Both the position numbers and the translations under genes were made by a program. A stretch of DNA of 32,000 bases. It comes from an uncultured Clostridia bacterium (lineage in GTDB: Bacteria; Bacillota; Clostridia; Christensenellales; Aristaeellaceae). Of the stretch, positions 13,496-30,318 are shown one piece after another; position 1 is the stretch's first letter, and each line of letters starts with the position of its first letter. The DNA lies in contig CAKUFG010000020.1 of the NCBI GenBank assembly GCA_934647235.1, forward strand, positions 15,699 to 47,698, written 5' to 3'. The notes below the pieces were generated by a model, which was not told where the DNA came from, ran no database searches, and saw only the letters and a program-made list of their open reading frames with translations.

Positions 13496-13867
13496 ATGGC
13501 TTTTGTTTACGCATTCCTGATCGCGGGCTGCATCTGCGCGCTGACGCAGTGCCTGAGCAGCCTGAAGGTTCCCTTCCCGCTGGTGGCGATTCTGCTGATG
13601 GTGCTGGGCGGCGGCCTGTGTACCAAGCTGGGATTCTTTGATTGGCTCAACGCTCTCTCCGCTGCTGGCCCGGCCGTTACGGCTGTGGGCTGCGGAAACG
13701 GCGCGTATAACGCGGGCGTTGCGTTGGCTGCCGCAGGCACGGCGCAGCCGCTGCTGCTGACCGCTGCGCTCAACGTAATCCTGGTTGCTCTGGGCGCAGG
13801 CTGCGGCGATTGGCTGCACAAGCGCTTTCCCGGCGCATTTGCCCGGCAGCTGACGGAAAGCAAGTGA
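13496..13867 (+). CDS. SpoVAC/SpoVAEB-family membrane protein (SpoVAEB-like)
   Basis: MAFVYAFLIAGCICALTQ and LSAAGPAVTAVGCG resemble SpoVAEB (AFLVGGGICVIGQ, FAGAGATVPITSFG). Confidence 0.6.
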   Translation: MAFVYAFLIAGCICALTQCLSSLKVPFPLVAILLMVLGGGLCTKLGFFDWLNALSAAGPAVTAVGCGNGAYNAGVALAAAGTAQPLLLTAALNVILVALGAGCGDWLHKRFPGAFARQLTESK

Positions 13868-13871
13868 CCGT

Positions 13872-14138
13872 ATGACTGAAATGGAAAAAACGCTGGCGCA
13901 GCGGATGATCGGCCAGCGGGTGACGCATGTGTCCCTGGGCGCGGGCGTGGTGAGCGCCTGCACCAACATTGCCATGAAGGTGAAGCTGGATGAAACGGGC
14001 GAGGAATGCGCCTTCGCGTTCCCTTACTCGTTCAAGCAGTTTTTTACCGCCGAGGATCCGGCGCTTCAGCAGGAAATCCTGAATTTCTATAATTCCGGAG
14101 CCTGGGTGGCCCCGATTCACGATCATCACGATTGCTGA
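13872..14138 (+). CDS. Hypothetical small protein (88 aa)
   Basis: The ORF starts 5 nt after the preceding gene, has host-like GC, and is followed by a good terminator. I recognise no motif. Confidence 0.45.
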   Translation: MTEMEKTLAQRMIGQRVTHVSLGAGVVSACTNIAMKVKLDETGEECAFAFPYSFKQFFTAEDPALQQEILNFYNSGAWVAPIHDHHDC

Positions 14139-14205
14139 TGGTGGACATCGGCAAGGCTGCGGCCGCATCGGATGAACGCAAAAAAGCAAATGACATACTC
14201 ACTTT

Positions 14206-14237
14206 CTGCCGCCCAATGGGCGGCAGCTTTTGTGTTT
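14206..14237 (+). terminator. Rho-independent terminator
   Basis: The CTGCCGCCC-AAT-GGGCGGCAG hairpin (14206-14226) is followed by CTTTTGTGTTT. Confidence 0.75.
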
Positions 14238-14325
14238 ATGAGATTTTGCTTTTTTCAGCAGAAGAATAACCACTTGCTTCTGACTTTCTTCAGATGTGTA
14301 TGAAAATCTATAGGGGATAGGATTA

Positions 14326-14526
14326 TTACGGGGAAGCGGCAGCATCTGCTTTCGGCGAGGCGCTTAAAACGGACAAAGCCTGAGTGCTATCCGGCGCTTG
14401 CTTTACAGGCAGCTGCATTTTCAAAAAAGTAATATACTGGTGGAGAACAGCATCCTGCGCATGATCCCGCCGAAAATAGGCGCGGATGTTTTTCGTCAGG
14501 CCTGGCTCTGCTGCGTTCAGATGAAA
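14326..14526 (-). pseudogene. Possible 3' remnant of a high-GC gene truncated at the island boundary
   Basis: This start-less open frame reads FHLNAAEPGLTKNIRAYFRRDHAQDAVLHQYITFLKMQLPVKQAPDSTQALSVLSASPKADAAASP*. It begins right after the RT stop codon and has host-like composition. I see no recognisable family. Confidence 0.3.
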
Positions 14527-16536
14527 TTACCCCTTAAATTTTTGCAGTGTAAACTTGCCGTTGAGCGTTGATACACATATATATCTGAGCCGTGTTTCTT
14601 TTGTGCTTTCCAGGAACCCAACAGGAACAAACCAAGCATTAACAATGCTGAAACCGTTTGACTGCTTTACCAAAGAGAAAAGTTCTTGCAATGAATCCAG
14701 AATTGCCATCAGCTTTTGTGCGTCCGCTTTTATGCTAATCTGTTCGGCCTGAAGGCATCTTGATTCATGATGAGCGGTATTATCCTTCCACCATGGACTT
14801 AAATGATCTTTGATCTGGCTATATAATGCATCAATCTTTTTAGAAATGTCTTCATCAAGTTGGAAGGGCCACCGCAGATCGATGCTTATACTGCCTTCCC
14901 ACTCGGTTTGCTCCGATATTTCCGGTAGATATGCTGTTTCCAGCACTTGTTTTCTCTGCGGTGATAGTGTACTCAAATCCTGGCGAAATATCCATCGGTT
15001 TTCTTGCGCACTGTACAGAATGAAGCTTCCAATAGATCTTTGCGCAATTAAAGGCCGGAACCAGTTTTTCGTTGTATAATGGTATTCACCGCACTTAGTT
15101 AATTTGTCTGGTTGACCATTATCGAACTGATAATCGGAAGAATAAGATACATCTGTTGCTTCAGTGCGGATTTTTCTTATCAGTGATCGGAACAGCTCAG
15201 TATTCCAGGGATATTCAAAGCTTAAGCTTTCTTGGCCAACAGTGAGTTTCATTCGATTGATTGACAAACGGCCGGATTCATTTTCAAATTCTCTGCAAAT
15301 AGAGAACAGATGATGTCGTAGAGCACTACGATCCTTTATGCTGTCTGCAGGAATAGTAACTCGCTCCCAGCATCTGGCTGTTACTGGAAGAACTTTGAAG
15401 TGTTTTATGCGGACATATGTTTCAAGCTGCTTTTCCTGCTCATATTCCTGCAAAACTGATACATCATCTAACAAAAGACGACTCAATGCTTTATACGTTA
15501 GGCTGCCCTTATAGCCAGTTTTGATCTGCAGGAGCTTTTTTAACTTGGCAGCGCTGTCTTTGCTTGCATGAGTAATGAAAGAGACTTTACCCATTACAGA
15601 TGCAAATTGACGGCGCATTTCCCAAAGTTCAATATTTGTTTTATTTTGCAGAAGATATCCAATTTCCTTGCTTGTTTCGATTATATATCTATGACTCACT
15701 GTGATTCTGTTTTTTCTTGTTGAGGTTTTTACCATGTTTAAGCCAAGAAGATGTATTGCGTCGCCTTCTGTTTTCAATTGGCGAATATAAGTTTTCTTCT
15801 TATTCAACTCAAGTTTATGATTTGTGATCTCTGCACGAAGTATTTCAAGCGCCTGCTCCAGCTTTTCTTTTGCATCAACGCCTGTGGTGGAAATAATGAA
15901 GTCATCTGCATAGCGCGTATAACAGATGCCCTTCAGCATGCTCATGCGTTCGTCAAGATCCTTAAGAAAGATATCTGACAAAATCGGTGATGTCACAAAA
16001 CCAATCGGAAGATGACCTTTATAAAAGCATGTAGAGAGAAATTTTTTTAAGAGAGCCGTTCTTGACTTTGGCCATGAGTGGACAGCCATCAAGCGATCAA
16101 ACAACAGATCAAAAGAAACTGAATCAAAATATGAATGGATGTCAGTTTTTAAATAGGTATCTGAACGCAGATGTAATTTGAGGCAGGAATCAGTGCTTTT
16201 TCCTTTCTGATACGCAAATGATTTGGCATCAGGCTCGTAAACTCCGCCAAGAGCAAGCGCAAACAATCTATGAAAATGACGAAGCATTTGTCCTTCAGGT
16301 GTTGCCTGATACGTTATGATTTGTCTGATCTTTCCGTTTACGATTGTTTTATATAGAAAGACATACTTATCCGGGTTGAGCAGATAATTTTGAATGGTGC
16401 GTTTAAACAAAGAAGAATACTGAGTAAAAAAACTAGGGAATGAAGCCATGCCTGACACTTCTCCGCAGGAGGAATATAGGCCGTATTTATCACAATGGAC
16501 GTTTCCCAGCAAGGTTTTAATCAATTGGTTATCCAT
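14527..16536 (-). CDS. Reverse transcriptase (aa ~60-275) fused to a ~330-aa C-terminal domain of unknown function
   Basis: The RT motifs are in order: KIRQIITYQATPEG (1/2), YLKTDIHSYFDSV (3/A), LPIGFVTSPILSDIFL (4/B), YTRYADDFII (5/C, with YADD at nt 15901-15912), LELNKKKT (6) and HLLGLNM (7). The start ATG overlaps the upstream helicase stop by 8 nt (ATGGATAA). Confidence 0.85.
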   Translation of the reverse strand: MDNQLIKTLLGNVHCDKYGLYSSCGEVSGMASFPSFFTQYSSLFKRTIQNYLLNPDKYVFLYKTIVNGKIRQIITYQATPEGQMLRHFHRLFALALGGVYEPDAKSFAYQKGKSTDSCLKLHLRSDTYLKTDIHSYFDSVSFDLLFDRLMAVHSWPKSRTALLKKFLSTCFYKGHLPIGFVTSPILSDIFLKDLDERMSMLKGICYTRYADDFIISTTGVDAKEKLEQALEILRAEITNHKLELNKKKTYIRQLKTEGDAIHLLGLNMVKTSTRKNRITVSHRYIIETSKEIGYLLQNKTNIELWEMRRQFASVMGKVSFITHASKDSAAKLKKLLQIKTGYKGSLTYKALSRLLLDDVSVLQEYEQEKQLETYVRIKHFKVLPVTARCWERVTIPADSIKDRSALRHHLFSICREFENESGRLSINRMKLTVGQESLSFEYPWNTELFRSLIRKIRTEATDVSYSSDYQFDNGQPDKLTKCGEYHYTTKNWFRPLIAQRSIGSFILYSAQENRWIFRQDLSTLSPQRKQVLETAYLPEISEQTEWEGSISIDLRWPFQLDEDISKKIDALYSQIKDHLSPWWKDNTAHHESRCLQAEQISIKADAQKLMAILDSLQELFSLVKQSNGFSIVNAWFVPVGFLESTKETRLRYICVSTLNGKFTLQKFKG

Positions 16537-18250
16537 TTTTTGCAGCCTCCCGAATTTTTACATCTAATGTCTGACGAGCTTTGTCTGAAACGACCATGTA
16601 TAATGCGCTGCGGGCCCGTGTCATACCAACATAAAGCAGATTCATTCTCTGATCATGGTCGAGACTGTCAAAATCAACTAATACAACAATGGGACTTTCT
16701 AGTCCTTTGAAAGCGTGGACTGTACTAAACAATATTTTTCCTTTTCTGTCTGTTCGTTCCGTGGAAACAGGAAAAGCAGGATCAAGATCGGAAGCCACTG
16801 ATCTATCAAAGCGAGAGGCGGATAGGATTACAATATCATCAAAACATATTTGTTCTTTTTTTAGCTGACGGAGAATGGATTCGACAATTTCTAGCTGAGC
16901 CTGGCTTTTTTTGTATCCGCGAATCTCTACCTCTGCACCGCGCATCTCCATTTTTCGAAACTTTGTATGCGTTCCAAAGATAGAATCTATTTTTTCGATA
17001 ATAGCCTGAGAATTACGACAATTGTTTATCAGAGAATAACTGGCAAAATGGCTATGGTATTCGTCAAGAGACTTTGCAATCTTTTCATAATCCGTATGAG
17101 CAAAATAGAGGTTTTGCTTATCTGCATCCATGAAAAAATACCAATTGCCATTTTGCAGTCCACCCGGGAGCATAAGGTCTATAGCTTCGAGATAGTGCGT
17201 TTCAAAAACATCCTGAGCCTCATCAATGATCAGCACGTCAAAAGGTTCATGAGCTTGCTCTATTAAATGCTCCGCATATTGAGTCGGCAACACGTCCGAA
17301 TAATACTTTGCCGTATCGTTTTTTCGCATCTGCTCCATTGTAGGAGAAAGACCTGCCAGGATAGCCTTTTCCATGTAATCAAGCAAACTATCGCAAACAA
17401 TTGAAGTATCATTGCCGATGCTCTCCTGCAGCCATCCTGCCAGGTTTCTATTATAGCAGAATAGACCAACTTTTTTCCCTTGGCCAGCGAAGGTGCGTGC
17501 AGATTCCAATGCCAATACTGTTTTGCCCGTTCCAGCACTTCCCTTAATTAAACATCTTTCATTCTCAAAAAGCCCTTCAAAAACCATTTGCTGGTTTTCA
17601 GTCAGAGTAATAATCTGCTTTTCGACACTTCGGATCTGACTTGAGATTGCTGGTTTAAAGTCATAGTTGGGCCGCAGAATGGCTGCGATTGCATTCGTCT
17701 GCTGTTTGTTAGGCACAAAAATCCGAGCATTTTTGCGACTCTTCCAGAATCCGGCAAGCTTCAGTAAATATGCTTTAATATCATAGTAGTTATCAATATC
17801 TGCGATTTGATAATCATCTAAATCCGGTATGGAAAAGCGCCCATGAACGGTTGAGTCAGGAAACACTACTCCAAAACCAAACAGACTCCATTGAAGGTTC
17901 TCTGCGTTATTTTTTTCAATAAAACTCATTAATGCGTGCATGGCATTGTTAGCTTCTGTTACCGGATTCTTGATTATATTCTGAATGCCAAACCGGTCTG
18001 TAGAGTACCACACGCCATTCTCATAGGAGATCCTGCCGCCCTTAACCTCTAAGGCAAAGGTCCCTCCATCTGGGAAAATTACGACAAAGTCGGCTTCACC
18101 TTGGGACTGAGTAGGATGTCTGGCAATTCCAACCGAATGGAGCACATACCAATCATCTGTGTCAGGCATGTTACGAAGCATAGTAAACAGCTTACGTTCC
18201 GCAGAGGACTTTGTATCCTCATCAATAGAAGCGGGAATCATGCGAGCCAT
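16529..18250 (-). CDS. NERD (PD-(D/E)xK nuclease-related) domain fused to an SF1 (UvrD/Dda-like) helicase, a Nhi-like architecture
   Basis: The N-terminus has the NERD core GEADFVVIFPDGGTFALEVKGG. The helicase motifs are Walker A GSAGTGKTVLA, Walker B/II VLIIDEAQD, TVHAFKGLE and LLYVGMTRARSALYMV. A GAGGTGATAAT RBS precedes the ATG. Confidence 0.85.
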   Translation of the reverse strand: MARMIPASIDEDTKSSAERKLFTMLRNMPDTDDWYVLHSVGIARHPTQSQGEADFVVIFPDGGTFALEVKGGRISYENGVWYSTDRFGIQNIIKNPVTEANNAMHALMSFIEKNNAENLQWSLFGFGVVFPDSTVHGRFSIPDLDDYQIADIDNYYDIKAYLLKLAGFWKSRKNARIFVPNKQQTNAIAAILRPNYDFKPAISSQIRSVEKQIITLTENQQMVFEGLFENERCLIKGSAGTGKTVLALESARTFAGQGKKVGLFCYNRNLAGWLQESIGNDTSIVCDSLLDYMEKAILAGLSPTMEQMRKNDTAKYYSDVLPTQYAEHLIEQAHEPFDVLIIDEAQDVFETHYLEAIDLMLPGGLQNGNWYFFMDADKQNLYFAHTDYEKIAKSLDEYHSHFASYSLINNCRNSQAIIEKIDSIFGTHTKFRKMEMRGAEVEIRGYKKSQAQLEIVESILRQLKKEQICFDDIVILSASRFDRSVASDLDPAFPVSTERTDRKGKILFSTVHAFKGLESPIVVLVDFDSLDHDQRMNLLYVGMTRARSALYMVVSDKARQTLDVKIREAAKNG

Positions 18251-18259
18251 ATTATCACC

Positions 18260-18373
18260 TCATAAAAAAGCAGAAGTGTTACTTAGAAAATAGGACACCT
18301 AAAAGTACTTTTAGGTGTACCAGCCACTGCTTACGCTGTCTCCACCTTAGGTGAAAATCTAACACTTCTGTAC
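18260..18373 (-). ncRNA. Structured 5' leader or candidate ncRNA of the NERD-helicase/RT operon
   Basis: An 11-bp outer stem pairs CAGAAGTGTTA (18271-18281) with TAACACTTCTG (18360-18370). It encloses a perfect 24-nt palindrome ACACCTAAAAGTACTTTTAGGTGT (18295-18318). On the minus strand the closing stem is followed by U6 (18264-18269) and then the SD. The predicted TSS lies at the 5' foot of the outer stem. Confidence 0.5.
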
Positions 18374-18378
18374 CATTA

Positions 18379-18407
18379 ATTATATAGGATATTGCAAGAA
18401 ATGTCAA
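18379..18407 (-). promoter_or_regulatory. Consensus SigA promoter driving the leader and the NERD-helicase/RT operon
   Basis: The minus strand reads TTGACA (18407-18402), a 17-nt spacer, then TATAAT (18384-18379). Both hexamers match consensus perfectly. Confidence 0.7.
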
Positions 18408-18552
18408 TCTTTCGGGATTCACGTTCAGAACATTTTGCTTCTTGATTATGGATAGTCTGTACAGTCGGGAGTATAGCTGTTCTCAACGCACCCAGAGGAC
18501 GGCATAGGCCAAGCAGGAATACCGCTCAAAGGTGGTATAGGTTTCATCAGGC

Positions 18553-18816
18553 TTAGAAGCGCCGTCGTCCAGCGGCAATGAAGCTGAAATAGTCGCGTGC
18601 GGCAGCGATATGCGCAGGACCTCTCGCTTCCATGGCTTTATCATATTTGCTTTTCGAATAGATAAGCCTATAATTATAGTTGCTGTCTATACCATGTTGA
18701 CAGCATATCTCTTCCCGCTGCTGCTTGTCAGGAAAACGGCTGTGCAGAAAGATATGGCAAAGATAGGCTTGACTGCAAACGGAAGGCCGATCTTGATAAA
18801 GCCTGCCTTCTATCAT
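18553..18816 (-). CDS. Hypothetical 87-aa ORF, possibly a gene fragment
   Basis: This is an ORF only. There is no clear RBS and no motif I can assign. The YDKAMEARGPAHIAAARDYF stretch is faintly AP2/HNH-like. Confidence 0.2.
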   Translation of the reverse strand: MIEGRLYQDRPSVCSQAYLCHIFLHSRFPDKQQREEICCQHGIDSNYNYRLIYSKSKYDKAMEARGPAHIAAARDYFSFIAAGRRRF

Positions 18817-18918
18817 TGAACAGCTGATATCCGGTGTTTGGGTTTTCTATTGCTTTGTCTCATTCACTTACAAATCACTTTTTTAGAAAGCTTGAAAATG
18901 GCTGACGGAAGCTGCAAA

Positions 18919-18948
18919 ACAGCTCTGAAGCATATGCTTCAGAGCTGT
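18919..18948 (-). terminator. Perfect 30-nt palindrome, a likely rho-independent terminator on the minus strand
   Basis: ACAGCTCTGAAGCAT/ATGCTTCAGAGCTGT has 15-bp arms and is followed on the minus strand by TTTG. It lies about 50 nt downstream of the 18999..19208 ORF. Confidence 0.5.
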
Positions 18949-18998
18949 GGCTAATCCCACTGAGGTTGATACAATATGGGGAAATACACACCCGAATT

Positions 18999-19208
18999 TT
19001 ATATGGATGATGGGGTGGACTGTGAAGTAGCTTGAGCCATGGCAATATTTTTTGGTTTCCCATTGACTAATTTGGGAATAGCGCCATATTGACCATCAAG
19101 GTACGCACGACGAATCCTTTTATCAAACCGTGCTCCAAATTCACCCAACCCAAATACTTTAGATGTACCATTCTCCTCCCTTTTAGCAACAAATCCTATT
19201 TCGGGCAA
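18999..19208 (-). CDS. Hypothetical 69-aa ORF, probably the 3' fragment of an unidentified gene
   Basis: The ORF is followed by a strong hairpin. Its 5' end coincides with the breakpoint of the recombinase remnant. No family recognised. Confidence 0.25.
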   Translation of the reverse strand: MPEIGFVAKREENGTSKVFGLGEFGARFDKRIRRAYLDGQYGAIPKLVNGKPKNIAMAQATSQSTPSSI

Positions 19209-19500
19209 AACGACTGAGACTTTTGACGATGATCATGTCGATCTGGCCGTTTCTGCAGTCCGTCAGCAGCCGCTGGAAGTCCTTTCGCTCCTTCGTTGTG
19301 CCGGTCACTTCATCCGCATAAATGCCAGCAAAAATCCAATCAGGATTGTGCTGAATCAGATTGCTGAAGTAGCTGACCTATGTGGAAAGAGAGTGCAGCA
19401 TCGCGTCTTTTACGCAGGAAATCCGCGCATAGGCGGCAACGCGCTTTTTCCCGGCTTTCTTTCTGCCGCCCGGCATGGTTTGATAAATGATTTTTGCCAC
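19183..19500 (-). pseudogene. Large serine recombinase, N-terminal resolvase-domain remnant with an in-frame TAG and a 3' truncation
   Basis: From the GTG at 19500 (GGAGGTGA RBS) the frame reads VAKIIYQTMPGGRKKAGKKRVAAYARISCVKDAMLHSLST*VSYFSNLIQHNPDWIFAGIYADEVTGTTKERKDFQRLLTDCRNGQIDMIIVKSLSRFARN. The TAG lies at 19378-19380. Similarity to recombinases ends after FARN at about 19197. Confidence 0.75.
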
Positions 19501-19565
19501 TCGGCTCACCTCCTTGGCAGCTGGCATGTTACCTCTGAAGCCCGGACAAAGCAAGTTAAATTGTA

Positions 19566-19724
19566 TCAACAACGAGCAGAAAAAATCGGCTGATACTTCT
19601 CCCGCAAAAGCTGTTCTGCGCTGCGAAATTCATCCATGGAGATCACGCCGTTTCCCAGCATGGCGCGGCAAATAGAGAGCATTGCCTAATACCGGATTTC
19701 CTTTTCAAAACCTTGCTGTGTCAT
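19566..19724 (-). pseudogene. Small helical protein of the type found just upstream of large serine recombinases, interrupted by an in-frame TAG
   Basis: After a GAGGTAAGGAA RBS the frame reads MTQQGFEKEIRY*AMLSICRAMLGNGVISMDEFRSAEQLLREKYQPIFSARC. The TAG lies at 19686-19688. Confidence 0.5.
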
Positions 19725-19785
19725 TTCCTTACCTCAAAAAAGAGAATCGGATTGAGCCGTTGTCTAAAACAGCCCAATCCGATCA

Positions 19786-20805
19786 TTAAATGATTTTTGC
19801 GAGTTTTCCGGATACCCAGCCCACGCGGGAACCAGTGACAATCGCGTGCCAGCCGTTCTGCGCGGTCGCCACCAGTGGGAAGGTGCTGCCCGGCGCAACG
19901 GTGGAAAGGCGCTCGTATTCCGTTCCGTTGCCGCAGCGGACGTTCACCTTGCCGCCTTCGGAGACGATCACCACTGTCGTACCAACTGGAGCAGGTTCAT
20001 CAGGCGTGGGCTGCTCCGGCGTGTCAGGCTGACCGTCATCATCCGCAGCAGCATCCATCAGCGCTGCGTGGGTTTTATCGCCGTACTTGCCGTCCGCTTC
20101 CAGACTGGCTTTCTTCTGGAACGCCAGCAGCGCCTTTTCCGTTTCTGTACCAAATTCAGCATCCGCGCCATACTTTGGCAGCGCGTAGCCCAGCTGCATT
20201 AGCAGCTCTTGCAGGGCTTTCACGTCGGAGCCCATCATGCCGCGTTTCAGCAGACGGCTTCCCAGCGCAATCTCCGGTGTAGGCACATCGACGGCAGCTT
20301 CTCCGTATTGGATAAAGGGCAGTTTGTACCAGTACTTCCACTTGCGCTCTTTCACCTTCGTGCGCACACAGCCATAGTTGAAACCTCGCCATTCCACGGC
20401 ATAGCCGTTACCGACGTAATAGCCCACATGCCCGTCTGTGTGCAGCGCCAGACCTACGATCTCCGGCAGCGTGTCAATCGTACCCCAATCCATGCCCTTG
20501 GATTTCGCCCAAGAAAACATGGAGTTCGCCCCCTTGTCCGGGCAGCCGTTTGCACCATACTTGTTGGAAACGGTACTATCCGTACCAATTGCATCCAGCA
20601 TGGCCTGCCCGCCATTCGTCCACGCATAGCCCTTCGCGCCGCCGATGCAGTCGCAAACCACTTTCTTATCCCGGATGTCCTGCTTGTACCGGCTCATGCG
20701 GGACGATGTGTAATGAGACGGATACTGCTTGGCCTTCCGGTTCAAAAGACTGGTCGTTGCCTTGTAGCCGCAGGTGCCGTACCAATAAGGCTGGCCTATA
20801 GACAC
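19786..20805 (-). CDS. Cell-wall hydrolase/endolysin: NlpC/P60-like domain + PG_binding_1 + SH3b
   Basis: There is a candidate catalytic Cys (VVCDCIGGAKGYAW) and His (TDGHVGYYVGNG). The PG-binding repeat is GSDVKALQELLMQLGY...ADAEFGTETEKALLAFQ...ADGKYGDKT. A Pro/Asp linker leads to a C-terminal SH3b-like region (GKVNVRCGNGTEY...GWVSG). The GTG start is uncertain. The frame stays open upstream to 20835, so the gene may be 5'-truncated. Confidence 0.7.
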   Translation of the reverse strand: MSIGQPYWYGTCGYKATTSLLNRKAKQYPSHYTSSRMSRYKQDIRDKKVVCDCIGGAKGYAWTNGGQAMLDAIGTDSTVSNKYGANGCPDKGANSMFSWAKSKGMDWGTIDTLPEIVGLALHTDGHVGYYVGNGYAVEWRGFNYGCVRTKVKERKWKYWYKLPFIQYGEAAVDVPTPEIALGSRLLKRGMMGSDVKALQELLMQLGYALPKYGADAEFGTETEKALLAFQKKASLEADGKYGDKTHAALMDAAADDDGQPDTPEQPTPDEPAPVGTTVVIVSEGGKVNVRCGNGTEYERLSTVAPGSTFPLVATAQNGWHAIVTGSRVGWVSGKLAKII

Positions 20806-23075: not shown

Positions 23076-26000
23076 TCAAACCATGACCTTATTCATCAGC
23101 TGCTGGAAGTCATCCACGTGGTCGTATGTGACCATGCCATTTGACAGTGTTGTAAAGAGCTTCTTCGCGCAGTCGATCTTTGCTTTCTCAATCGGGCGCA
23201 GGTTTAGACTGTCCATTGTTCCCTTCGTTTCCGCAACGAAGTAGATGTGCCGTACAGTGCCCTCATGGAACACGATTGCCCAGTCCGGCGAATAATGCCC
23301 GACCGGCGTAGGAATGGAGAACCCTCTCGGCAGCTTCGCGTAGATGAATACATCCTGAGAACCATCCAGCGATTTGACAAAGCGGCGCTCGACGCTATCC
23401 TCTGCTGTGCCGTCAGTGAAGACATAATCCTGAATGGCTTTGTCGGCATGGAATGCTTGGTCGAAGGTCTTTCCGTGTTTTTCAGCAGTAAAGATACTGC
23501 TGTCATAACTACCCTCGATCTGGTCGTAGGTAATATGTTCCACAATCATGGTTGCCTTCTGTTCCTTGATCAGACGGATAACCTTGGAAATGAATTCCTC
23601 CGGGTTATTGCGGAACATATAGAATTTAGCCGGGTTAATGCCCTTTAGAACGGCAGCAGCAGAACGGCGCGTAAGCACAGTGCCTTCCGCAATTTTGCCG
23701 ACGAGATCATACTTGACCTGGCTGGTTTCCGCATGTTTCAGCGTTTCAGTATGTGTTTTTGCCGCCTCAAAGCTATTGCCGGTTCGCATCTCATCGCCGG
23801 AGATGCTTGCCTTTTGACCGGCAACAGAAACAGTATACTGCAGCTGGCTGACGAACAGCTCACTGTTGATCGCCGCGACAGCTTTACGGATCAGCTCGTC
23901 GCTGTCGAAATCAACCGTATACGCATACTTGTGATTGATCGCCGTCCAGAGATTCTGGAATTCCTTTTTGTAGAAGCGGTCATTGAGCGGATTCTCCGGC
24001 GCAGGCGTCTTATTGCCATCAGCAAACATTTCTTTGAGAACCTTATCATCGAAAATTGCCTGTACCAGCTTATGGATGCTTTCACCTATCGGCTGAAGCC
24101 CCTCGGGCAGCGGCTTGAGACGATCAGCAGCCACATCATCACGATAATCCTGCGTAATGCCGTCATCTTCATCCACATAGTTGTTGCGGACGAGGTATTG
24201 GTAGATTTTTCTCGCATCCGACGCATTGATCTTTGCGGTAGAGCCATCTGCCATAATGACGTTTTTGCCCTCAAAGTACTCAATGCTTGCCTTCCGGGGA
24301 CGATCATACAGCACAGCACGAGTTTCGTCCTGCAGAGCAGCGACGAAATCCGCATAGCCCTCACTGGCAATGACCGTCAGGGTATTCAGAACATGAACGT
24401 CTGCACCGACGGTTTCCGCGTCCATGCGCTCACCAGCCTGATTGACGCACAGGCGCAGTCCGCGGCCAACCTCCTGCCGCTTCTGCGTGGTGCTGTCGCC
24501 GCCGTGCTTGAGCGTGCAAATCTGGAACACATTCGGGTTGTCCCAGCCCTCGCGCAGTGCGGAGTGCGAGAAGATGAAGCGTGTCGGCTCCTCAAAGCTG
24601 AGCAGGCGCTCTTTGTTCTTGAGAATCAGGTCATACGCGGAAATATCATCGCTGAACTCATTGCCGCGCTTGAGTTGGCTGTCGATGGCACGCCCGGTCT
24701 TCTTGTCGATGCTGAAATAGCCGCGATGCGTAGCATGAACATCAATGCCATCGAGATATGCCACATACTCCGGATCAAGCAGAGTACGGTATCCGTTCAT
24801 GACCGAAACGTATTCTTCCTCAAAAATACGCCCGAATTCGCCGAGCGCCTCATTGCCATCCGCATCGTATTGCCGGTAATGCGCTACCTCGTCGATGAAG
24901 AACAGCGACAGCGTCTTAATGCCCTTGTGGAACAGCTGCGCTTCCTTCTGAAAGTGAGAGATGATCGTTTCCCGAATCTGCACACGGCGCTTGTCGCTTT
25001 CGGAGACGTCGCCGATGACTTCGCCCTTGTGGATCATATCGCCATTGATGAAGGTGACGGTTCCATCAATGGGATCGATCTGTGAAACGGAAAAGCCACG
25101 GTACTGTTCCATTTCGCCGGAGATGAAATAGAGGTTATCTCCAACGGTCAGCGGGCGAGTTTCGCGGTTGATGGACTTGTTGTATCGGATCTCCAATTCC
25201 ATGCGCACCTTCGGCGGCTTTTTCGGAGAGAGGACGAAGCTCTCAAGGTACAGATAACCGTCCGTACCGCGAAAATTCTTTACTTCAAAGCCCTTGACCT
25301 CAATGCGTTTAACCAGACGCTTGTTATAAGCGTCCAGCGCGTCCAGCACATAGATCAGGTTGTGCCGCTCCTTGTGTGTTGCGGAGTAGTTGAGCGTGAA
25401 AAGCGGATTGAAGGATTTCAGCGCCTTCTGCGTCACGTCGCCGCCCATCTTCTGGGGTTCATCCATGATGATGATCGGGCGATTTGCGGCAATGACGTCA
25501 ATCGGGCGGCGGCTCTGAAACTCGTCGCGCTTCGAGTAGATGATGCGCGCTTCCTTGCTCTTGCCGTCCTCTTTCAAAGAAGCGGCGAAAGCCTGCGTGT
25601 TGATAATCATCACATTGATGCCGCTGTCGGCAGAAAAGCTGTCCAGCTGGTTCAGGTTGGCGCTGGAATAGATGAAGAACCGCGCCTTCTTGCCGTAATG
25701 CTCCATGAAATGGTCAACGGTGATCTCGAAGGACTTCTTCACGCCCTCGCGAATGGCGATAGACGGCACGACCACGATGAACTTGCTCCAGCCATAGCGC
25801 TTGTTCAGCTCGAACATCGTCTTGATATACACATAGGTTTTGCCCGTGCCGGTTTCCATTTCCACGTCCAGCGCACAGCGTCCCAGCCCCTTCGCAAGGG
25901 AAGCGGACTGATAAATCTCGTTGTCCTGCTGCACGTCGCGGATGTTTTTCAGCAGCTGCTCATCGGTCAGCTGCAGCATTTCGTTCAGATAGCCGGTATC

Positions 26001-26195
26001 GTCTACTTCATCCATCGAAATCTGATCAGGAGGAAACAGGCTCATCTGCTGATCCACAGGCGCGAGCACAGGCTTGGTCTCGCCCAAATCGCGGCGATAG
26101 GACACGCCATCGGAATAGGGCTGTCCTTTGAAGGCCCTCACGACGCTGTCAACGGCATCGGTCTGGTATTGCTGTATCTTAAATCGAAATTTCAT
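23076..26195 (-). CDS. res: Type III restriction-modification system endonuclease (Res) subunit
   Basis: The N-terminus MKFRFKIQQYQTDAVDSVVRAFKGQPY is typical of Type III Res. The SF2 helicase motifs are METGTGKTYVY (I), IIIMDEPQKM (II), NYSATH (III) and QEVGRGLRL (VI). The C-terminal PD-(D/E)xK motif is YSPDWAIV...IYFVAETKG. Confidence 0.85.
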   Translation of the reverse strand: MKFRFKIQQYQTDAVDSVVRAFKGQPYSDGVSYRRDLGETKPVLAPVDQQMSLFPPDQISMDEVDDTGYLNEMLQLTDEQLLKNIRDVQQDNEIYQSASLAKGLGRCALDVEMETGTGKTYVYIKTMFELNKRYGWSKFIVVVPSIAIREGVKKSFEITVDHFMEHYGKKARFFIYSSANLNQLDSFSADSGINVMIINTQAFAASLKEDGKSKEARIIYSKRDEFQSRRPIDVIAANRPIIIMDEPQKMGGDVTQKALKSFNPLFTLNYSATHKERHNLIYVLDALDAYNKRLVKRIEVKGFEVKNFRGTDGYLYLESFVLSPKKPPKVRMELEIRYNKSINRETRPLTVGDNLYFISGEMEQYRGFSVSQIDPIDGTVTFINGDMIHKGEVIGDVSESDKRRVQIRETIISHFQKEAQLFHKGIKTLSLFFIDEVAHYRQYDADGNEALGEFGRIFEEEYVSVMNGYRTLLDPEYVAYLDGIDVHATHRGYFSIDKKTGRAIDSQLKRGNEFSDDISAYDLILKNKERLLSFEEPTRFIFSHSALREGWDNPNVFQICTLKHGGDSTTQKRQEVGRGLRLCVNQAGERMDAETVGADVHVLNTLTVIASEGYADFVAALQDETRAVLYDRPRKASIEYFEGKNVIMADGSTAKINASDARKIYQYLVRNNYVDEDDGITQDYRDDVAADRLKPLPEGLQPIGESIHKLVQAIFDDKVLKEMFADGNKTPAPENPLNDRFYKKEFQNLWTAINHKYAYTVDFDSDELIRKAVAAINSELFVSQLQYTVSVAGQKASISGDEMRTGNSFEAAKTHTETLKHAETSQVKYDLVGKIAEGTVLTRRSAAAVLKGINPAKFYMFRNNPEEFISKVIRLIKEQKATMIVEHITYDQIEGSYDSSIFTAEKHGKTFDQAFHADKAIQDYVFTDGTAEDSVERRFVKSLDGSQDVFIYAKLPRGFSIPTPVGHYSPDWAIVFHEGTVRHIYFVAETKGTMDSLNLRPIEKAKIDCAKKLFTTLSNGMVTYDHVDDFQQLMNKVMV

Positions 26196-27241
26196 GGCTT
26201 GTGGTTCACCACCTGTTCCAGCATAAGGAAACGGTCAAAATCGCTTTCGTACAGGCGATCCTGAATAATCCGATACTTTTCATATTCCGTCTCCGCATGG
26301 AGCTTTGCTTGTTCCGCAGTGATCTTGCCGGGGCCTGTCAGCAGCTCGTTTCCGTTAAACTCCAGAAAGCCGTCCAGACGCTTCGCCCAGTCCTCCATGC
26401 TCATGGGAATCTTGCGCTCCGCCTGCAATTGGGCATAATCCAGATAAAGAGAGACGATGCGCTCCAGATAGTGCATTTCCTGTTCGCTTAAATAGTTCTT
26501 GGCCACTGTCACGTCTGTTTTCAGGATCTTGCCATCCGGCGCATTCTCCCATGTGGTCAGCCCCATATGCTCCTTGTTGGCGTCCGCACGCTCCACGATG
26601 AGCTCCGCAGCCGTGTGTCTGTGGACGGCAAAATGCATCTTGTTCTGCACCGTCTGAAAGAACAGGCGGGTCGTTCTGGCGTCCTTATCGTAATCAAACG
26701 CCGTTGCGTACAGGTCTGTGACCTTCTGATAGAACTTTCGTTCGCTCAGCCGTATCTCCCGAATCTGCTCAAGCTGACGCTCGAAGTATTCGTCCGTGAA
26801 CATATGTCCCTTTTTCAGGCGCTCCACGTCCATCGTCCAGCCCTGAATGGTGTGGTCTTTCACGATCTGACCTGCCCATTTGCGGAATTGCACGGCACGC
26901 TGATTATTGACCTTGAAGCCAACGGCTATGATCATTTGCAGGTTAAAGTGAGCCACCTCACGGTTGACCTGCCGCACACCTTCTGTTTGAACTATTCGGA
27001 ATTTCCGAATAGTTGCCGCCTCAGTCAATTCTCCGTCTGCGTATATCTTTTTGATATGCTCATTGATGGTAGGAAGCCCTACATCATACAATGCCGCCAT
27101 CATCTTCTGCGTCAACCAGATGTTTTCATCCTCGTAGCGCATCTCGAAGCTGACGTCGCTCTCGCCGGTGGCGGCGACGAAGGTCAGATATTCCGCAGCA
27201 GAGCTGCGCAGGGCAAGCTCCTTTTTCTTCTGCGCCGCCAT
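26192..27241 (-). CDS. RhuM-family protein embedded between mod and res
   Basis: Strings typical of RhuM-family proteins: NIWLTQKMMAALYDVGLPTINEHIKKIY, ATIRKFRIVQTEG.RQVNREVAHFNLQMIIAVGFKVNNQRAVQFRKWA and IREIRLSERKFYQKVTDLYA. An ATGA overlap joins it to res, and a 1-nt gap separates it from mod. Confidence 0.75.
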   Translation of the reverse strand: MAAQKKKELALRSSAAEYLTFVAATGESDVSFEMRYEDENIWLTQKMMAALYDVGLPTINEHIKKIYADGELTEAATIRKFRIVQTEGVRQVNREVAHFNLQMIIAVGFKVNNQRAVQFRKWAGQIVKDHTIQGWTMDVERLKKGHMFTDEYFERQLEQIREIRLSERKFYQKVTDLYATAFDYDKDARTTRLFFQTVQNKMHFAVHRHTAAELIVERADANKEHMGLTTWENAPDGKILKTDVTVAKNYLSEQEMHYLERIVSLYLDYAQLQAERKIPMSMEDWAKRLDGFLEFNGNELLTGPGKITAEQAKLHAETEYEKYRIIQDRLYESDFDRFLMLEQVVNHKP

Positions 27242-27242
27242 A

Positions 27243-29285
27243 TCACAGCACCTTCCTTACAGTCGAGGGCGAGTAGGTCTCGAAAATCTGGTCAAAGTTG
27301 GTGGCCGTGCTGTCGTCCGCCATGGAGGCGTCGCGGAAGACGGCGTAGTAGGGCTGCCGCTTGGCAATGGCGGTCACGGTTTCGGTGGTTACGCCTTTAT
27401 CGAAGCAGGCCAGCAGGAAGCCGTCCGCCACGTCGAACACGCGCTTGCCGTCGATTTCCGTCTCGGTAATCGTGCTGGAGGGCAGCACGCCCAGCTCCAG
27501 CATGACCTGGAACAGCAGGTCTTCCGGCGTGCGGTCAGGCTTGATGTTATCCGTCGTGAAGGAAAGCAAATCCTGCCGCATTGCGTCGGGCGTGTAGTAG
27601 ACGTCCTGCATGTTGGAGGAATCCAGCCGCAGGCAGCGGAAGCCGCCGTCAAAGTCCTTGGAGAGCGCCAGCCCTGCGTCCTCACGGATTTTCTTGGCAG
27701 CGCGGCGAATGCGCTCCTTGCCGATTTCGCAGAGGTCAGAGTACTGTTGAGTCGCACTTTTTTCAGGCAATTGAACGAGAATATATCTGCGTTTGCTATC
27801 GGCATTCTTTGCGTTGATTTGCATAACGGCTTGCGCAGTAGTTGCTGACCCAGAAAAGAAATCCATGATCAAATCATTCTTTTGGGTCGAAATTTGAATA
27901 ATTCGCTCAATCAGTCGTGTTGGCTTAGGCGTATCGAAAGGTGCTTTTCCATCAAAAATCGATAGTAGTTCCTTTTTGGCTTCATCAGTATGACCGACCT
28001 CAGAACATGGCCAGAGATTTGTTACAACCTTGCCGTTTTTTTCGTCCAAGTACGTTTTCTTTGCAATACCACCATTTCCTCCACTAGTAAAATAGTACAG
28101 CGGCCAATTGCCTCTATCATACACCTCTCTTGCATTTTTGCGTGCAATTGATACATCATCGCAGAGAACAATACCCTTAACACCTGTACGCACATTATTA
28201 GGTGTTACACCACAAATAGATGCGCGTTCTGTTTCATCATTCAAATCACGCAGTTCATAGCGGCTCCACCCTTGCATGATTTTCAGCATATCATTCTGCT
28301 GATAACGCCAATGCGCTCCATTACTGGGGTATAGCATCTTTCCTGTAAAAGGATGCTGAATAGCATAAACCATTCCTTGATGCGTTGCCGCCCCGGGCGC
28401 ACAGGGATTATCTGCACGCCACAGTACAGGATCTCCATCAGGGCTCTTATACTTTTCATTCATTTCAGCCGTTCGCGGTAATTTATAAGGAATCCAATTA
28501 GCCTGACGACTGAATACAATCAAATGCTCCTTTTCGCTACTAATACCTTTTGAATCATTTCGTGGTGCATAAGTCCTTTGCCATGCAATATCGGCAACAA
28601 AGCAGCTTTCGCCAAATACGCTTTCACAGGTCTTTATGAGATTAGCAGCTTCGTGGTCATCAATACTGATAAAGATAACCCCATCCTCGCTCAGTAAATC
28701 CTTCGCCACTCTCAGCCGCGGATAAATCATGTTCAGCCAATCCGTATGGAATCTGCCGTTGCTGTCGGTGTTCTGCACGAGCTGGTTGCCCTGTTCGTCA
28801 TACTGTCCGCTTCTGCCCATATAGCTGTCCGTGTCCTCGGCAAAATCGTCCTCATAGACGAAATCGTTGCCGGTGTTGTAGGGCGGGTCGATGTAGATCA
28901 TCTTCACCTTGCCCAGATACGTTTCCCGCAGCAGCTTGAGCACGTCCAGATTGTCGCCCTCGATATACAGATTCTCGCTGTCCCAGCCGCCGGGCGTGCC
29001 ATCCTTGCCCACGCTGTCCGCCTTGATGGGGCGCAGCGTTGCCGAAATGGGCGCGTTCGCCGCCAGCATCGCCTTCTTCTTGTCCGGCCACGTAAACTGA
29101 TAGCGCTCCTCGCGGCCTTCCACAACCGTCGTGGAAATCTCCTGCATCAGCACATCCTTGTCAATGGCGCGGACAACCTCGCCGTTCTCGTTCACGGTCT
29201 CCGTGACCGCGTTCGGGAACAGCGCCGCCAGCTTTTTATAATTCTCATCCGCCAGATTGGGGGTGTGCATGGTGAGCTTATCCAT
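27243..29285 (-). CDS. mod: Type III Mod-like DNA methyltransferase (N6-adenine/N4-cytosine, beta class)
   Basis: Motif IV is MIYIDPPYNTGNDFVYEDDF. Motif I is DLIMDFFSGSATTAQAV. The large central variable region is taken as the TRD. Gene order is mod upstream of res. Confidence 0.85.
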   Translation of the reverse strand: MDKLTMHTPNLADENYKKLAALFPNAVTETVNENGEVVRAIDKDVLMQEISTTVVEGREERYQFTWPDKKKAMLAANAPISATLRPIKADSVGKDGTPGGWDSENLYIEGDNLDVLKLLRETYLGKVKMIYIDPPYNTGNDFVYEDDFAEDTDSYMGRSGQYDEQGNQLVQNTDSNGRFHTDWLNMIYPRLRVAKDLLSEDGVIFISIDDHEAANLIKTCESVFGESCFVADIAWQRTYAPRNDSKGISSEKEHLIVFSRQANWIPYKLPRTAEMNEKYKSPDGDPVLWRADNPCAPGAATHQGMVYAIQHPFTGKMLYPSNGAHWRYQQNDMLKIMQGWSRYELRDLNDETERASICGVTPNNVRTGVKGIVLCDDVSIARKNAREVYDRGNWPLYYFTSGGNGGIAKKTYLDEKNGKVVTNLWPCSEVGHTDEAKKELLSIFDGKAPFDTPKPTRLIERIIQISTQKNDLIMDFFSGSATTAQAVMQINAKNADSKRRYILVQLPEKSATQQYSDLCEIGKERIRRAAKKIREDAGLALSKDFDGGFRCLRLDSSNMQDVYYTPDAMRQDLLSFTTDNIKPDRTPEDLLFQVMLELGVLPSSTITETEIDGKRVFDVADGFLLACFDKGVTTETVTAIAKRQPYYAVFRDASMADDSTATNFDQIFETYSPSTVRKVL

Positions 29286-29311: not shown

Positions 29312-29707
29312 TTACTGTGCTTGAAAAATCCGCTTGATTTCGTGTTCAATAACTGTCTTTGCGCCGTATTTTAAGGCGGTATCCAAATAGAGAATCATCT
29401 CAATAAAGTCGAGAACCGACTTCCATTCCTCAGCATTCTTGCTTTCAGCCTCGCTTTTCGGAATATCTATCACCTGAACGCTCGTCCAGAAAGAGTAGGA
29501 ATTGATTAGATGGCGATACCTTTGCAAGTACCTCTGAGCCGTCGAATAGCATTTATCCCAATCTGATGAATTTTTCGCATCGCGAATCTCCGCCGTCAGA
29601 ATTTTCACTTTTGACAGTTCATGCGCCGCGCTTAATGTCTTCTTGACAACGTCCATTGCACGAGAGGTTTGCTCATTGACTGCATCTCTGCTCAGAATGG
29701 TATTCAT
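29312..29707 (-). CDS. Hypothetical 131-aa helical protein
   Basis: The ORF has an ATGA overlap with the upstream DUF4391 gene and ends 26 nt before mod. Its GC is lower than its neighbours. No motif recognised. Confidence 0.5.
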   Translation of the reverse strand: MNTILSRDAVNEQTSRAMDVVKKTLSAAHELSKVKILTAEIRDAKNSSDWDKCYSTAQRYLQRYRHLINSYSFWTSVQVIDIPKSEAESKNAEEWKSVLDFIEMILYLDTALKYGAKTVIEHEIKRIFQAQ

Positions 29708-30318
29708 TGATTCTCCTCCCTTAGCTGTTTTATTCTCTGTACCAGCTCAAACTTCTTCTTCGGCTGCTTCTCCGCACGCGCCTGTTTTTCTAATCTGTCA
29801 ATTTCCTTTTGCAGCTTTGCCCGCTTATCGTCCAGCGCAATCTGTTCGTTCAGCGTGTGGCTGCCCTCGATTTCGATGTGCCCGATCTGCGTGACCACGC
29901 TTTCCCAAACCGCGTCCATATTCAAGCCCTGAAGACGGAGCGTCTGACTTCCGGCAGGCTGCCATTCATCCATGATGAGCTTTGTCTGCCACAGGGCGAG
30001 ACGCTCCACCTGCTCGCAGGTGAGGACAAGCACAGTGTTCTGTCCGAAGGTTCGGGCAATGAAAACGATGTTCTGCTTATCAAATTCCTTCCGGCGCAGG
30101 CTGACCTGCACCACAAAAAAGGCGTGAATGTCCTTGCCATCCGCCAGATTCAGCGAAACCGTGGATACTTCGTTGCAGACCGTAATCCGCGCCACGTCGG
30201 CGTCAAAGCTCTTGCGCCTATCGGCGCTCATGTCCGCAGCAAAATGCTCGAGCACCTTTTTCTTGGGAATGATCTTCCTGACCTCTGTGGATAATGGCAA
30301 TCCCAGCATGAAACGCAC
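29704..30318 (-). CDS. DUF4391-like protein
   Basis: LGLPLSTEVRKIIPKKKVLEHF...ITVCNEVSTVSLNL...IHAFFVVQVSL matches my recollection of DUF4391 N-terminal regions. The context is typical, directly downstream of an SNF2 helicase and upstream of a methyltransferase. The tail is a coiled coil (KRAKLQKEIDRLEKQARAEKQ). Confidence 0.55.
   Translation of the reverse strand: MRFMLGLPLSTEVRKIIPKKKVLEHFAADMSADRRKSFDADVARITVCNEVSTVSLNLADGKDIHAFFVVQVSLRRKEFDKQNIVFIARTFGQNTVLVLTCEQVERLALWQTKLIMDEWQPAGSQTLRLQGLNMDAVWESVVTQIGHIEIEGSHTLNEQIALDDKRAKLQKEIDRLEKQARAEKQPKKKFELVQRIKQLREENQ

Follow-up and report, generated by a model that had tools for sequence, protein, structure and literature searches.

Two overlapping genes from an uncultured Clostridia bacterium (Aristaeellaceae), one for a NERD nuclease fused to a superfamily 1 (SF1) helicase and the other for a reverse transcriptase (RT), raise the question of whether they form an RT-based anti-phage system and, if so, whether that system belongs to a class already described. 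The contig (CAKUFG010000020.1, assembly GCA_934647235.1) was analyzed over the 32,000 nucleotides (nt) from position 15,699 to 47,698, and this whole stretch is referred to below as the window. A first inspection of the letters made without database searches (the sequence-only reading) had put the pair forward as a candidate undescribed defence system, and all of its sequence-level statements about the two genes, which lie on the minus strand, were confirmed. We consider the module to be probably an unclassified, retron-like type of anti-phage system in which the NERD-SF1 helicase is the effector, and in which a conserved structured non-coding RNA (ncRNA), encoded between the promoter and the helicase gene, would play the part of a retron msr-msd.

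The promoter, leader and two genes described in the sequence-only reading were all recovered (Table 1). Open reading frame (ORF) coordinates and Pfam matches agreed with its account of the two proteins, and every motif quoted for them was found: GEADFVV...LEVKGG, GSAGTGKT, IIDEAQD and YVGMTRAR in the helicase, and YADD, STDSCLKLH and HLLGLNM in the RT. Promoter-like sites as a class were not enriched in 14000-18900 relative to shuffled sequence (10 found versus 9.5 expected), so the case for the TTGACA-17-TATAAT promoter rests on its perfect score and its position rather than on the number of sites. The transcription start predicted from it falls at about 18372/18371, the first bases of the ncRNA, and in related loci promoters of the form TTGACA/TTGACG ... 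TATAAT/TAAAAT likewise lie 5′ of the ncRNA. At the other end of the RNA, 9 nt separate the a2 arm of its terminal stem from the Shine-Dalgarno (SD) sequence of the helicase gene, and GAGGTG occurs at the same spacing in L001, L006, L010, L014 and L018. The U-run that follows a2 may act as a partial terminator, raising the level of the ncRNA above that of the mRNA. Further downstream, the RT start codon lies inside AATGGATAA, and the 8-nt overlap of helicase stop and RT start indicates translational coupling; in most related loci the two genes likewise overlap, by 1-26 nt, while in a few they are separated by 14-20 nt.

The 135 nt between promoter and helicase start codon proved more stable than shuffled versions (minimum free energy (MFE) -37.2 kcal/mol, z = -2.7). 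The structure of what had been called a structured leader was therefore borne out, while its status as a mere leader was not, since the region encodes a conserved ncRNA laid out like the msr-msd of a retron. This region is conserved in loci whose RTs are 35-60% identical to that of the window. In an alignment of 17 distinct ncRNA sequences (A2, made with MAFFT), 99% of cells in the a1/a2 stem and the P2 hairpin were paired, compared with 44-57% when the partner was slid by 1-3 columns; eight pairs had changed on both sides, and none of 500 shuffles reached the observed values. Compensatory changes were seen at 7 of the 11 pairs of the a1/a2 stem, in which 98.9% of cells were paired, and P2 alternates C-G with U-A among homologues. 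When folded as lone sequences, all 27 RNAs (the 17 aligned and 10 independent ones) adopted the same four-helix shape of a1/a2, P2, P3 and P4. The P3 loop is often GCAA or GUAA, and P4, which is hypervariable in sequence, is paired in every case over 8-17 bp. Two Gs, G14 (18359) directly 3′ of a1 and G91 (18282) directly 5′ of a2, are invariant in 17/17 aligned sequences, and a conserved single-stranded UUCC element lies 5′ of a2.

These elements agree with the published description of retron ncRNAs, which have terminal inverted repeats, "two opposing G residues," one to three msr hairpins and a highly variable msd stem of 10-50 bp (PMC7736814): the a1/a2 repeats, the opposing Gs, msr-like hairpins within the 1-3 range and a variable msd-like stem are all present. 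A comparison with Rfam 15 gave no match for the ncRNA at the gathering threshold or at E <= 1, a chance snoRNA match elsewhere being the only one in the region. In a 97%-identical relative (L092, 458-564, aligned with window 18372-18266), an A-U pair of P4 is replaced by G-C, such that ACACC...GGTGT becomes GCACC...GGTGC. Because this change is compensatory, the P4 stem appears to be kept even over very short evolutionary distances.

Some loci carry tandem arrays of the ncRNA 5′ of the helicase gene, with three copies at a 183-nt period in L014 (3771-4249) and L024 (3773-4249) and two copies in L096 (113-426). In the L014 array a separate TTGACG-17-TAAAAT promoter and U-run accompany every unit, and P4 is the main point of difference between units. 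Because the units are equipped in this way, the arrays fit a trans-acting RNA and are hard to square with a cis-acting leader.

We then considered how closely RNA, helicase and RT travel together. A covariance model of the ncRNA (R1), whose shortened calibration makes its E-values rough, was tested on loci retrieved by protein similarity alone. R1 matched directly 5′ of the helicase gene in all eight independent loci (L092, L095, L096, L099, L102, L103, L254 and L255), and in 6/6 new metagenome loci with an intact helicase 5′ end the match ended 15-50 nt before the start codon. Over the first 90 sources (about 1 Mb), matches were confined to helicase-RT loci and absent from 66 other RT loci; about 100 other RT loci, scanned in all, yielded no match. 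Within the closer clades, each look-up anchored on the RT showed the NERD-helicase gene immediately 5′ of the RT gene. Two of the three helicase-anchored look-ups, chosen regardless of RT (L254 and L255), had an overlapping downstream RT together with the ncRNA. The pair is thus a conserved, translationally coupled module, as the sequence-only reading had supposed. Its RT homologues comprise about 75 full-length proteins, unnamed and mostly metagenomic, and a second, larger sister clade in Clostridia metagenome-assembled genomes (MAGs) has the same RNA and helicase arrangement with an RT of 304-353 amino acids (aa).

The helicase also occurs in other company. L253 (283-5737) holds an RT-less operon of an AAA ATPase (670 aa), a metallophosphatase (232 aa), an unannotated 318-aa protein and a NERD-helicase 44% identical to that of the window; the operon contains no RT, and R1 finds no ncRNA in this locus. 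Here the same effector may have been put to use in another candidate defence system. Because L254 and L255 have RT and ncRNA together while the RT-less L253 has no ncRNA, we take the ncRNA to track the RT and the helicase to be a portable module.

Several loci depart from the common arrangement in other ways. The gene order is swapped in L107 (417-2478), where a 325-aa retron-like RT precedes a NERD-helicase 30% identical to the window's (E = 2e-33), and R1 gives no ncRNA match in the AT-rich region upstream. L104 (833-1971) lacks the helicase: the ncRNA (52 bits) stands directly 5′ of a 337-aa RT, which is followed by a housekeeping DUF1385/PrmC fusion, and this locus is either a two-part or a degenerate version of the module. 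In an Oscillospiraceae MAG (L012, 5530-5898), ncRNA and RT (646 aa) are both intact, but all that remains of the helicase between them is a NERD fragment of 123 aa. Finally, a sister RT lineage of about 655 aa with a different C-terminal region has no NERD-helicase (L008, 5825-5983; also L011, 5782-5878). The RNA directly 5′ of the L008 RT has arms AAAGAATCCTA and TAGGATTCTTT, each flanked by a G, together with a hairpin of about 30 bp, a U-run and an MFE of -67 kcal/mol, and small unannotated ORFs lie upstream in this lineage (229 aa in L008, 354 aa in L009). Because the helicase-less L008 has an a1/a2, G/G and long-hairpin RNA of its own, the whole RT lineage looks retron-type.

Table 1. Features of the module and its surroundings in the window, listed along the direction of transcription for the module and then for the flanking DNA.
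Feature	Position	Strand	Basis or remark
Sigma-70-type promoter TTGACA-17-TATAAT	18407-18379	-	sole 12/12 match within 14000-18900
Conserved structured ncRNA, candidate retron msr-msd, 107 nt	18372-18266	-	covariance model R1, 99 bits, E = 4e-17
a1 arm	18370-18360	-	11-bp stem with a2
Invariant G, candidate 2′-OH priming/branching G	18359	-	G14 of alignment
P2 conserved hairpin	18356-18340	-	7 bp
P3 short hairpin	18338-18321	-	single-sequence folds
P4 variable hairpin, candidate msd stem	18318-18295	-	10 bp in window; single-sequence folds
Invariant opposing G	18282	-	G91 of alignment
a2 arm	18281-18271	-	11-bp stem with a1
U-run	18264-18269	-	directly 3′ of a2 arm; T run after a2 in all related loci
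SD sequence GAGGTG of helicase gene	18256-18261	-	5 nt 5′ of ATG at 18250; read from sequence
NERD (PD-(D/E)xK) nuclease + SF1 helicase ORF, 573 aa, predicted effector	16529-18250	-	ORF listing; Pfam, PADLOC
Helicase/RT gene overlap	16529-16536	-	8 nt
RT ORF, 669 aa	14527-16536	-	ORF listing
RT N-terminal part, residues 1-335 (fingers, palm, thumb)	15532-16536	-	RVT_1 (105-266), 79.5 bits
RT C-terminal orphan domain, residues 336-669 + stop codon, 334 aa	14527-15531	-	window's subclade only
Hairpin, G+C-rich (9 bp, 8 G-C), + T-run	14206-14226		between end of plus-strand SpoVA-type cluster and RT stop
Serine-recombinase remnant, frameshifted, truncated	~19200-19572	-	motif reading, not HMM
339-aa protein, PG_binding_1 + lysin-like N-terminus	19786-20805	-	beside recombinase remnant
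Type III res	23076-26195	-	
RhuM-family gene	26192-27241	-	between mod and res
Type III mod	27243-29285	-	
DUF4391 protein	29704-30318	-	upstream of restriction-modification operon
516-aa ORF with helicase C-terminal domain only	30320-31870	-	upstream of restriction-modification operon

In agreement with the RNA, the RT ranked closest to those of retrons. Its best PADLOC matches were the retron models RT_I-B (101 bits), RT_II-A (98 bits) and III-A (87 bits), with Drt3a at 80 bits, and NCBIfam gave 112 bits for retron_St85_RT (cut-off 235), 84 bits for the group II intron RT model TIGR04416 (cut-off 300) and 67 bits for Drt3a. The retron-sized RTs of the sister clade scored slightly higher on retron models, and the scores span 112-130 bits against the 235-bit cut-off, a ranking that derives from hidden Markov models (HMMs) and the PDB rather than from a reference tree. 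When a profile of the family was compared with all PDB sequences, the top 15 matches were retron RTs (E 2.5e-20 to 1e-12), followed by group II RTs at 5e-11 and Drt3a (9z6y) at 1e-9. The RT therefore fits no described type of retron or defence-associated RT (DRT) at family threshold in PADLOC or NCBIfam, as had been supposed.

The sequence-only reading had further stated that the RT lacks the retron signatures NAxxH and VTG, which is literally correct. Region X of the window RT reads SCLKLH (C[LIMV]xxH in the family) where retrons have NAxxH, with N and A replaced, and region Y reads HLLGLN (H[LVA]LG[LV]N, or xLG) where retrons have VTG, with V and T replaced. H122 and G265, however, are invariant in the RT family, as is YADD, and H and G are the most conserved residues of the two retron motifs (Mestre et al., 2020, PMC7736814). 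As judged from the alignment, the region X and Y motifs are variant rather than absent.

The predicted effector contains NERD (residues 16-115), UvrD_C_2, SLFN-g3_helicase and AAA_30/19 matches in Pfam. Among PADLOC models RTasNERD-Hel (PDLC03813) fitted best, matching the full length of the protein at 202 bits; sister-clade helicases scored 157-201 bits and that of L107 less; AbiO (48.7 bits) and Nhi (44.7 bits, in two stretches) gave weak, partial matches. The nuclease residues E52, D54, E68 and K70, the Walker A motif GTGKT and the Walker B motif DE-QD (DEAQD) are invariant in alignments of 14 loci and of 47 homologues (44-98% identity), and A345, FKGLE and MTRA are invariant in the former and at least nearly so in the latter. 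A model made with AlphaFold2 (AF2; predicted local distance difference test (pLDDT) 86.9) had SLFN11/14, Upf1, UvrD/PcrA, Dna2 and RecD2 as its closest folds in Foldseek; a sequence search of the PDB with the helicase gave no match at E <= 0.001. The family is large, with 928 clusters at E <= 1e-10, for which the only name given is "NERD domain-containing protein," and it is common in Clostridia of the human and animal gut, its clusters at 90% identity numbering in the hundreds.

The C-terminal half of the RT had been described as unplaceable, and so it remained: Pfam and PADLOC gave no match to residues 336-669, and Foldseek gave nothing at E <= 0.001 in the PDB or BFVD. AF2 predicted a mixed alpha/beta fold (pLDDT 86.3, predicted template modelling score (pTM) 0.79), for which the sub-threshold Foldseek matches, at template modelling (TM) scores of about 0.2, were tandem ferredoxin-like proteins (chlorite dismutase, YkoF) and AcrIIC3. 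A profile of the domain, compared with 1.84 billion representative proteins, produced 21 matches, nearly all of them to this RT fusion, whole or fragmentary; three that were weak and repetitive fell in unrelated proteins. The 4253-aa protein P0113 matches profile positions 106-181 in 13 separate stretches (E = 2.7e-12), and these positions may represent a repeatable module found elsewhere too. P0107, a candidate for a stand-alone version of the domain, was rejected as a fragment on a 1-kb contig, and tblastn found no separate gene for the domain in the sister-clade loci. Because the sister clade keeps the same RNA and helicase with an RT that does not have the domain, we regard the domain as a late, accessory addition to the window's subclade and not as part of the core system. 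It may serve as an extra sensor or docking surface.

To which known system, then, is the module closest? The likeness to retrons comprises the covarying a1/a2 repeats, the opposing invariant Gs, the conserved 5′ hairpins and the variable long hairpin of the ncRNA, the best-scoring RT models and structures, the retron-sized RTs of the sister clade and the co-transcribed effector gene. The order ncRNA-effector-RT is shared with Retron-Sen2/St85 and Vmi1, that of Sen2/St85 being given in PMC11701397. As in retrons with nuclease effectors (Eco8 with OLD, Ec78 with PtuAB), the module has a nuclease-type effector that could plausibly be restrained by a complex of RT and multicopy single-stranded DNA (msDNA). 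It differs from retrons in the variant X/Y motifs, in an ncRNA that lies outside Rfam, in the two to three tandem ncRNA genes of some loci and in the 334-aa orphan domain. A NERD-SF1 effector is missing both from the 13 types defined in Mestre 2020 (PMC7736814), a paper that mentions neither NERD nor any helicase, and from the 2026 SPIRE survey. The latter has 13 canonical types and two type XI-like lineages, of which one is associated with DnaB_C-like proteins rather than NERD/SF1. Literature searches for retron with NERD, retron with UvrD, UG34, and Nhi with retron, most subscription-journal papers being outside their scope, returned no description of the module.

The pairing of an RT with a NERD-helicase, which the sequence-only reading had not recognised as a described type, does have a precedent. 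The PADLOC model RTasNERD-Hel represents the NERD-helicase cluster (cluster 485) found beside 7/17 UG34 RTs, for which the prediction of a defence role was "inconclusive" (Mestre et al., 2022, PMC9226505), the only paper on UG34 in the searchable literature. The UG34-associated helicase and those of the module's family are homologous and collinear (157-202 bits, full length), although the RT lineages differ: the module RT is retron-like and its C-terminal domain is not an alpha-repeat, the helicase match is moderate, as for a related family, and no ncRNA has been reported for UG34. We concluded from these comparisons that the UG34 helicase represents a related family whose partner RT is of another lineage. 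Membership of the window RT in UG34 or the DRTs was rejected, as no UG34 match appeared among the PADLOC matches listed for the window, the sister clade and L107 (the presence of an RT_UG34 model in PADLOC 2.0 being unconfirmed); the UG models that did match family RTs were RT_UG17/22/26.

Among stand-alone systems, Nhi/AbiO likewise combine a PD-(D/E)xK-type nuclease and an SF1 helicase in one polypeptide. Unlike the module helicase, which is operon-coupled to an RT in nearly all loci and accompanied by an ncRNA, Nhi alone is both sensor and effector, and Nhi family membership was rejected on this ground and on the partial nature of the HMM match. Foldseek aligned SLFN11/14 over about 600 columns, with the same order of N-terminal nuclease and C-terminal SF1 helicase, and UvrD with a TM score of up to 0.51; sequence identity to SLFN11/14, Dna2 and UvrD/PcrA, however, is 10-17%, which is a likeness of fold and architecture and not family membership. 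The claim of a new architecture can thus be kept in part. No described type was matched at threshold, yet the module is not wholly new, given its msr-msd-like ncRNA, its retron-nearest RT and the UG34 NERD-helicase precedent. We rate as new the effector class, the variant RT motifs, the natural ncRNA arrays and the orphan RT extension of the window, and as retron-like the RNA, the RT affinity and the operon logic.

A number of points weigh against a retron-like defence system and must be set beside this evidence. The RT falls far below every retron family cut-off (less than half the cut-off score for retron St85), its canonical NAxxH and VTG are replaced, and its placement in the retron clade is a best match by HMM and PDB ranking only. 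For the RNA, the A2 sequences were gathered with a motif derived from the same family, such that only the eight later loci are independent; the values from the covariation shuffles can be exceeded through shared ancestry alone, to which the slid controls are a partial answer; and P3 and P4 are supported by single-sequence folds, the hypervariable region being unalignable by MAFFT and so not scored by column. The msDNA, its branching and the phage defence are predictions from sequence and retron analogy, and the predicted msDNA would be short by the standard of known retrons. IMG/VR contained no close member of the family (best match 30% identical) and none on viral contigs. The neighbours of family loci, which include McrBC, HsdS with HNH, UvrD-PDDEXK and integrases, and Type III restriction-modification (R-M) in the window, are often defence or mobile-element genes, a context that is anecdotal and unscored. 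Because NAxxH and VTG do not occur as written, the RT is placed by ranking only and the msDNA is predicted, we withhold formal membership of the retrons.

By analogy with retrons, the RT would recognise the conserved P2/P3 (msr) part of the ncRNA, prime from the 2′-OH of G18359 and copy from just 5′ of a2 back through P4, giving a branched msDNA of about 40-50 nt that carries the P4 hairpin. [quoted passage not shown] Sequestration of effectors by msDNA is described for Ec78 and Eco8, with Eco8 triggered by phage SSB, in PMC12819146 and PMC13402713. Nhi degrades phage replication intermediates and is countered by phage SSB (Bari et al., bioRxiv 10.1101/776245). A bolder form of this scheme is speculative and, taken as a whole, rather improbable: the module would be a new retron type in which msDNA is the substrate that parks a Nhi/Schlafen-like nuclease-helicase, the tandem ncRNAs supply several msDNA "baits" for several phage factors, and the orphan domain is a sensor of unseen fold.

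Retron-like msDNA synthesis is not the only way in which an RT could use a dedicated RNA. In the manner of Class 2 UG/Abi RTs (DRT2, DRT9, Drt3a), the ncRNA could be a template from which concatemeric, homopolymeric or double-stranded cDNA is made that activates or loads the helicase-nuclease. The position of the ncRNA immediately 5′ of the operon would suit this, as would the altered X/Y motifs, the single-stranded UUCC before a2 and the fact that PADLOC, NCBIfam and the PDB all detect Drt3a as a relative. Drt3a is nevertheless outranked everywhere by the models and structures of retron RTs, no UG-type model ranks first for any member, and an a1/a2 stem flanked by two invariant opposing Gs is the specific geometry of 2′-OH priming (PMC7736814). 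We therefore think this explanation unlikely.

A retron of the Type VI kind would instead make little or no msDNA at rest, with infection inducing msDNA that switches on translation or activity of the helicase. The precedent is the hybrid RNA of the Type VI Retron-Vpa2 (bioRxiv 10.1101/2025.10.22.683967), and here too the ncRNA is on the same transcript and 5′ of the effector ribosome-binding site, with the end of a2 close to the SD sequence. The predicted folds, however, leave the SD sequence and start codon unsequestered, the effector coding sequence lies outside the structured RNA, the tandem units with promoters and U-runs suggest free-standing RNAs, and the effector is a large enzyme rather than a small toxic peptide. 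Such a switch seems to us less likely again.

That the module is a UG34-type DRT, with template-free, protein-primed synthesis like that of Class 1 UG/Abi RTs and an RNA that is a regulatory leader or attenuator, is highly improbable. The full-length match of the helicase to the cluster beside UG34 RTs speaks for it, and the a2 arm with its U-run does resemble a terminator. Yet UG34 is absent from the matches of the L022 RT, complete down to E <= 1e-15, as it is from the other matches listed (with the same proviso as to the model library), the C-terminal domain is alpha/beta rather than a Class 1 alpha-repeat and is missing from the sister clade, and a leader would leave the promoter-equipped RNA copies and the invariant G/G pair unexplained. 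A non-immune origin, as a mobile or diversity-generating retroelement or a decaying remnant, has already been largely refuted and is scarcely credible: the AT-rich, horizontally acquired island beside a broken recombinase and the 84-bit match to the group II intron RT model would allow it, but a group II intron was rejected (no Rfam RNA, RVT_1 only in Pfam with no maturase or endonuclease domain, a score far below the 300-bit cut-off), as was a diversity-generating retroelement (only 16-21-nt chance repeats in 13500-20000 and no pair of template and variable repeats), and both ORFs are intact, with catalytic residues invariant across 30-98% identity and synteny conserved across many MAGs.

If msDNA synthesis and defence were confirmed, the retron-like module would bring the kinds of retron to fourteen. 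Its defining marks would be an RT clade whose X/Y motifs are non-canonical, an ncRNA family of its own outside Rfam and a nuclease-helicase effector related to the stand-alone Nhi/AbiO-type defences and to the UG34-associated helicase. There would then be at least three separate recruitments of one effector module: to a retron-like RT, to a UG/Abi RT, and to an operon that has an ATPase and a phosphatase but no RT. This would be relevant to the way in which defence systems are put together from parts. Gut Clostridia are almost unexplored as regards retron biology, and a compact ncRNA that occurs naturally in multi-ncRNA arrays could be of interest for retron-based genome editing. The C-terminal domain would add a confidently predicted, extremely rare fold without known relatives.

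In GC content, recombinase debris and Type III R-M operon, the surroundings of the module were as the sequence-only reading had described them. GC content is 0.39-0.46 over about 14.0-19.0 kb, compared with 0.56-0.63 upstream, and a Type III R-M operon of mod, a RhuM gene and res occupies 23076-29285. The recombinase debris beside the island is a frameshifted serine-recombinase remnant, whose N-terminal piece (KRVAAYARIS) ends at a stop; a second frame resumes with IFAGIYADEVTGTTKERKDFQRLLTDCRNGQIDMIIVKSLSRFARN and is then cut off. The neighbouring 339-aa PG_binding_1 protein may be prophage debris. A search for boundary repeats or att sites around the island found nothing convincing. At its low-coordinate edge the AT-rich island is marked by the G+C-rich hairpin with its T-run, in which transcription of the flanking host operon probably terminates.

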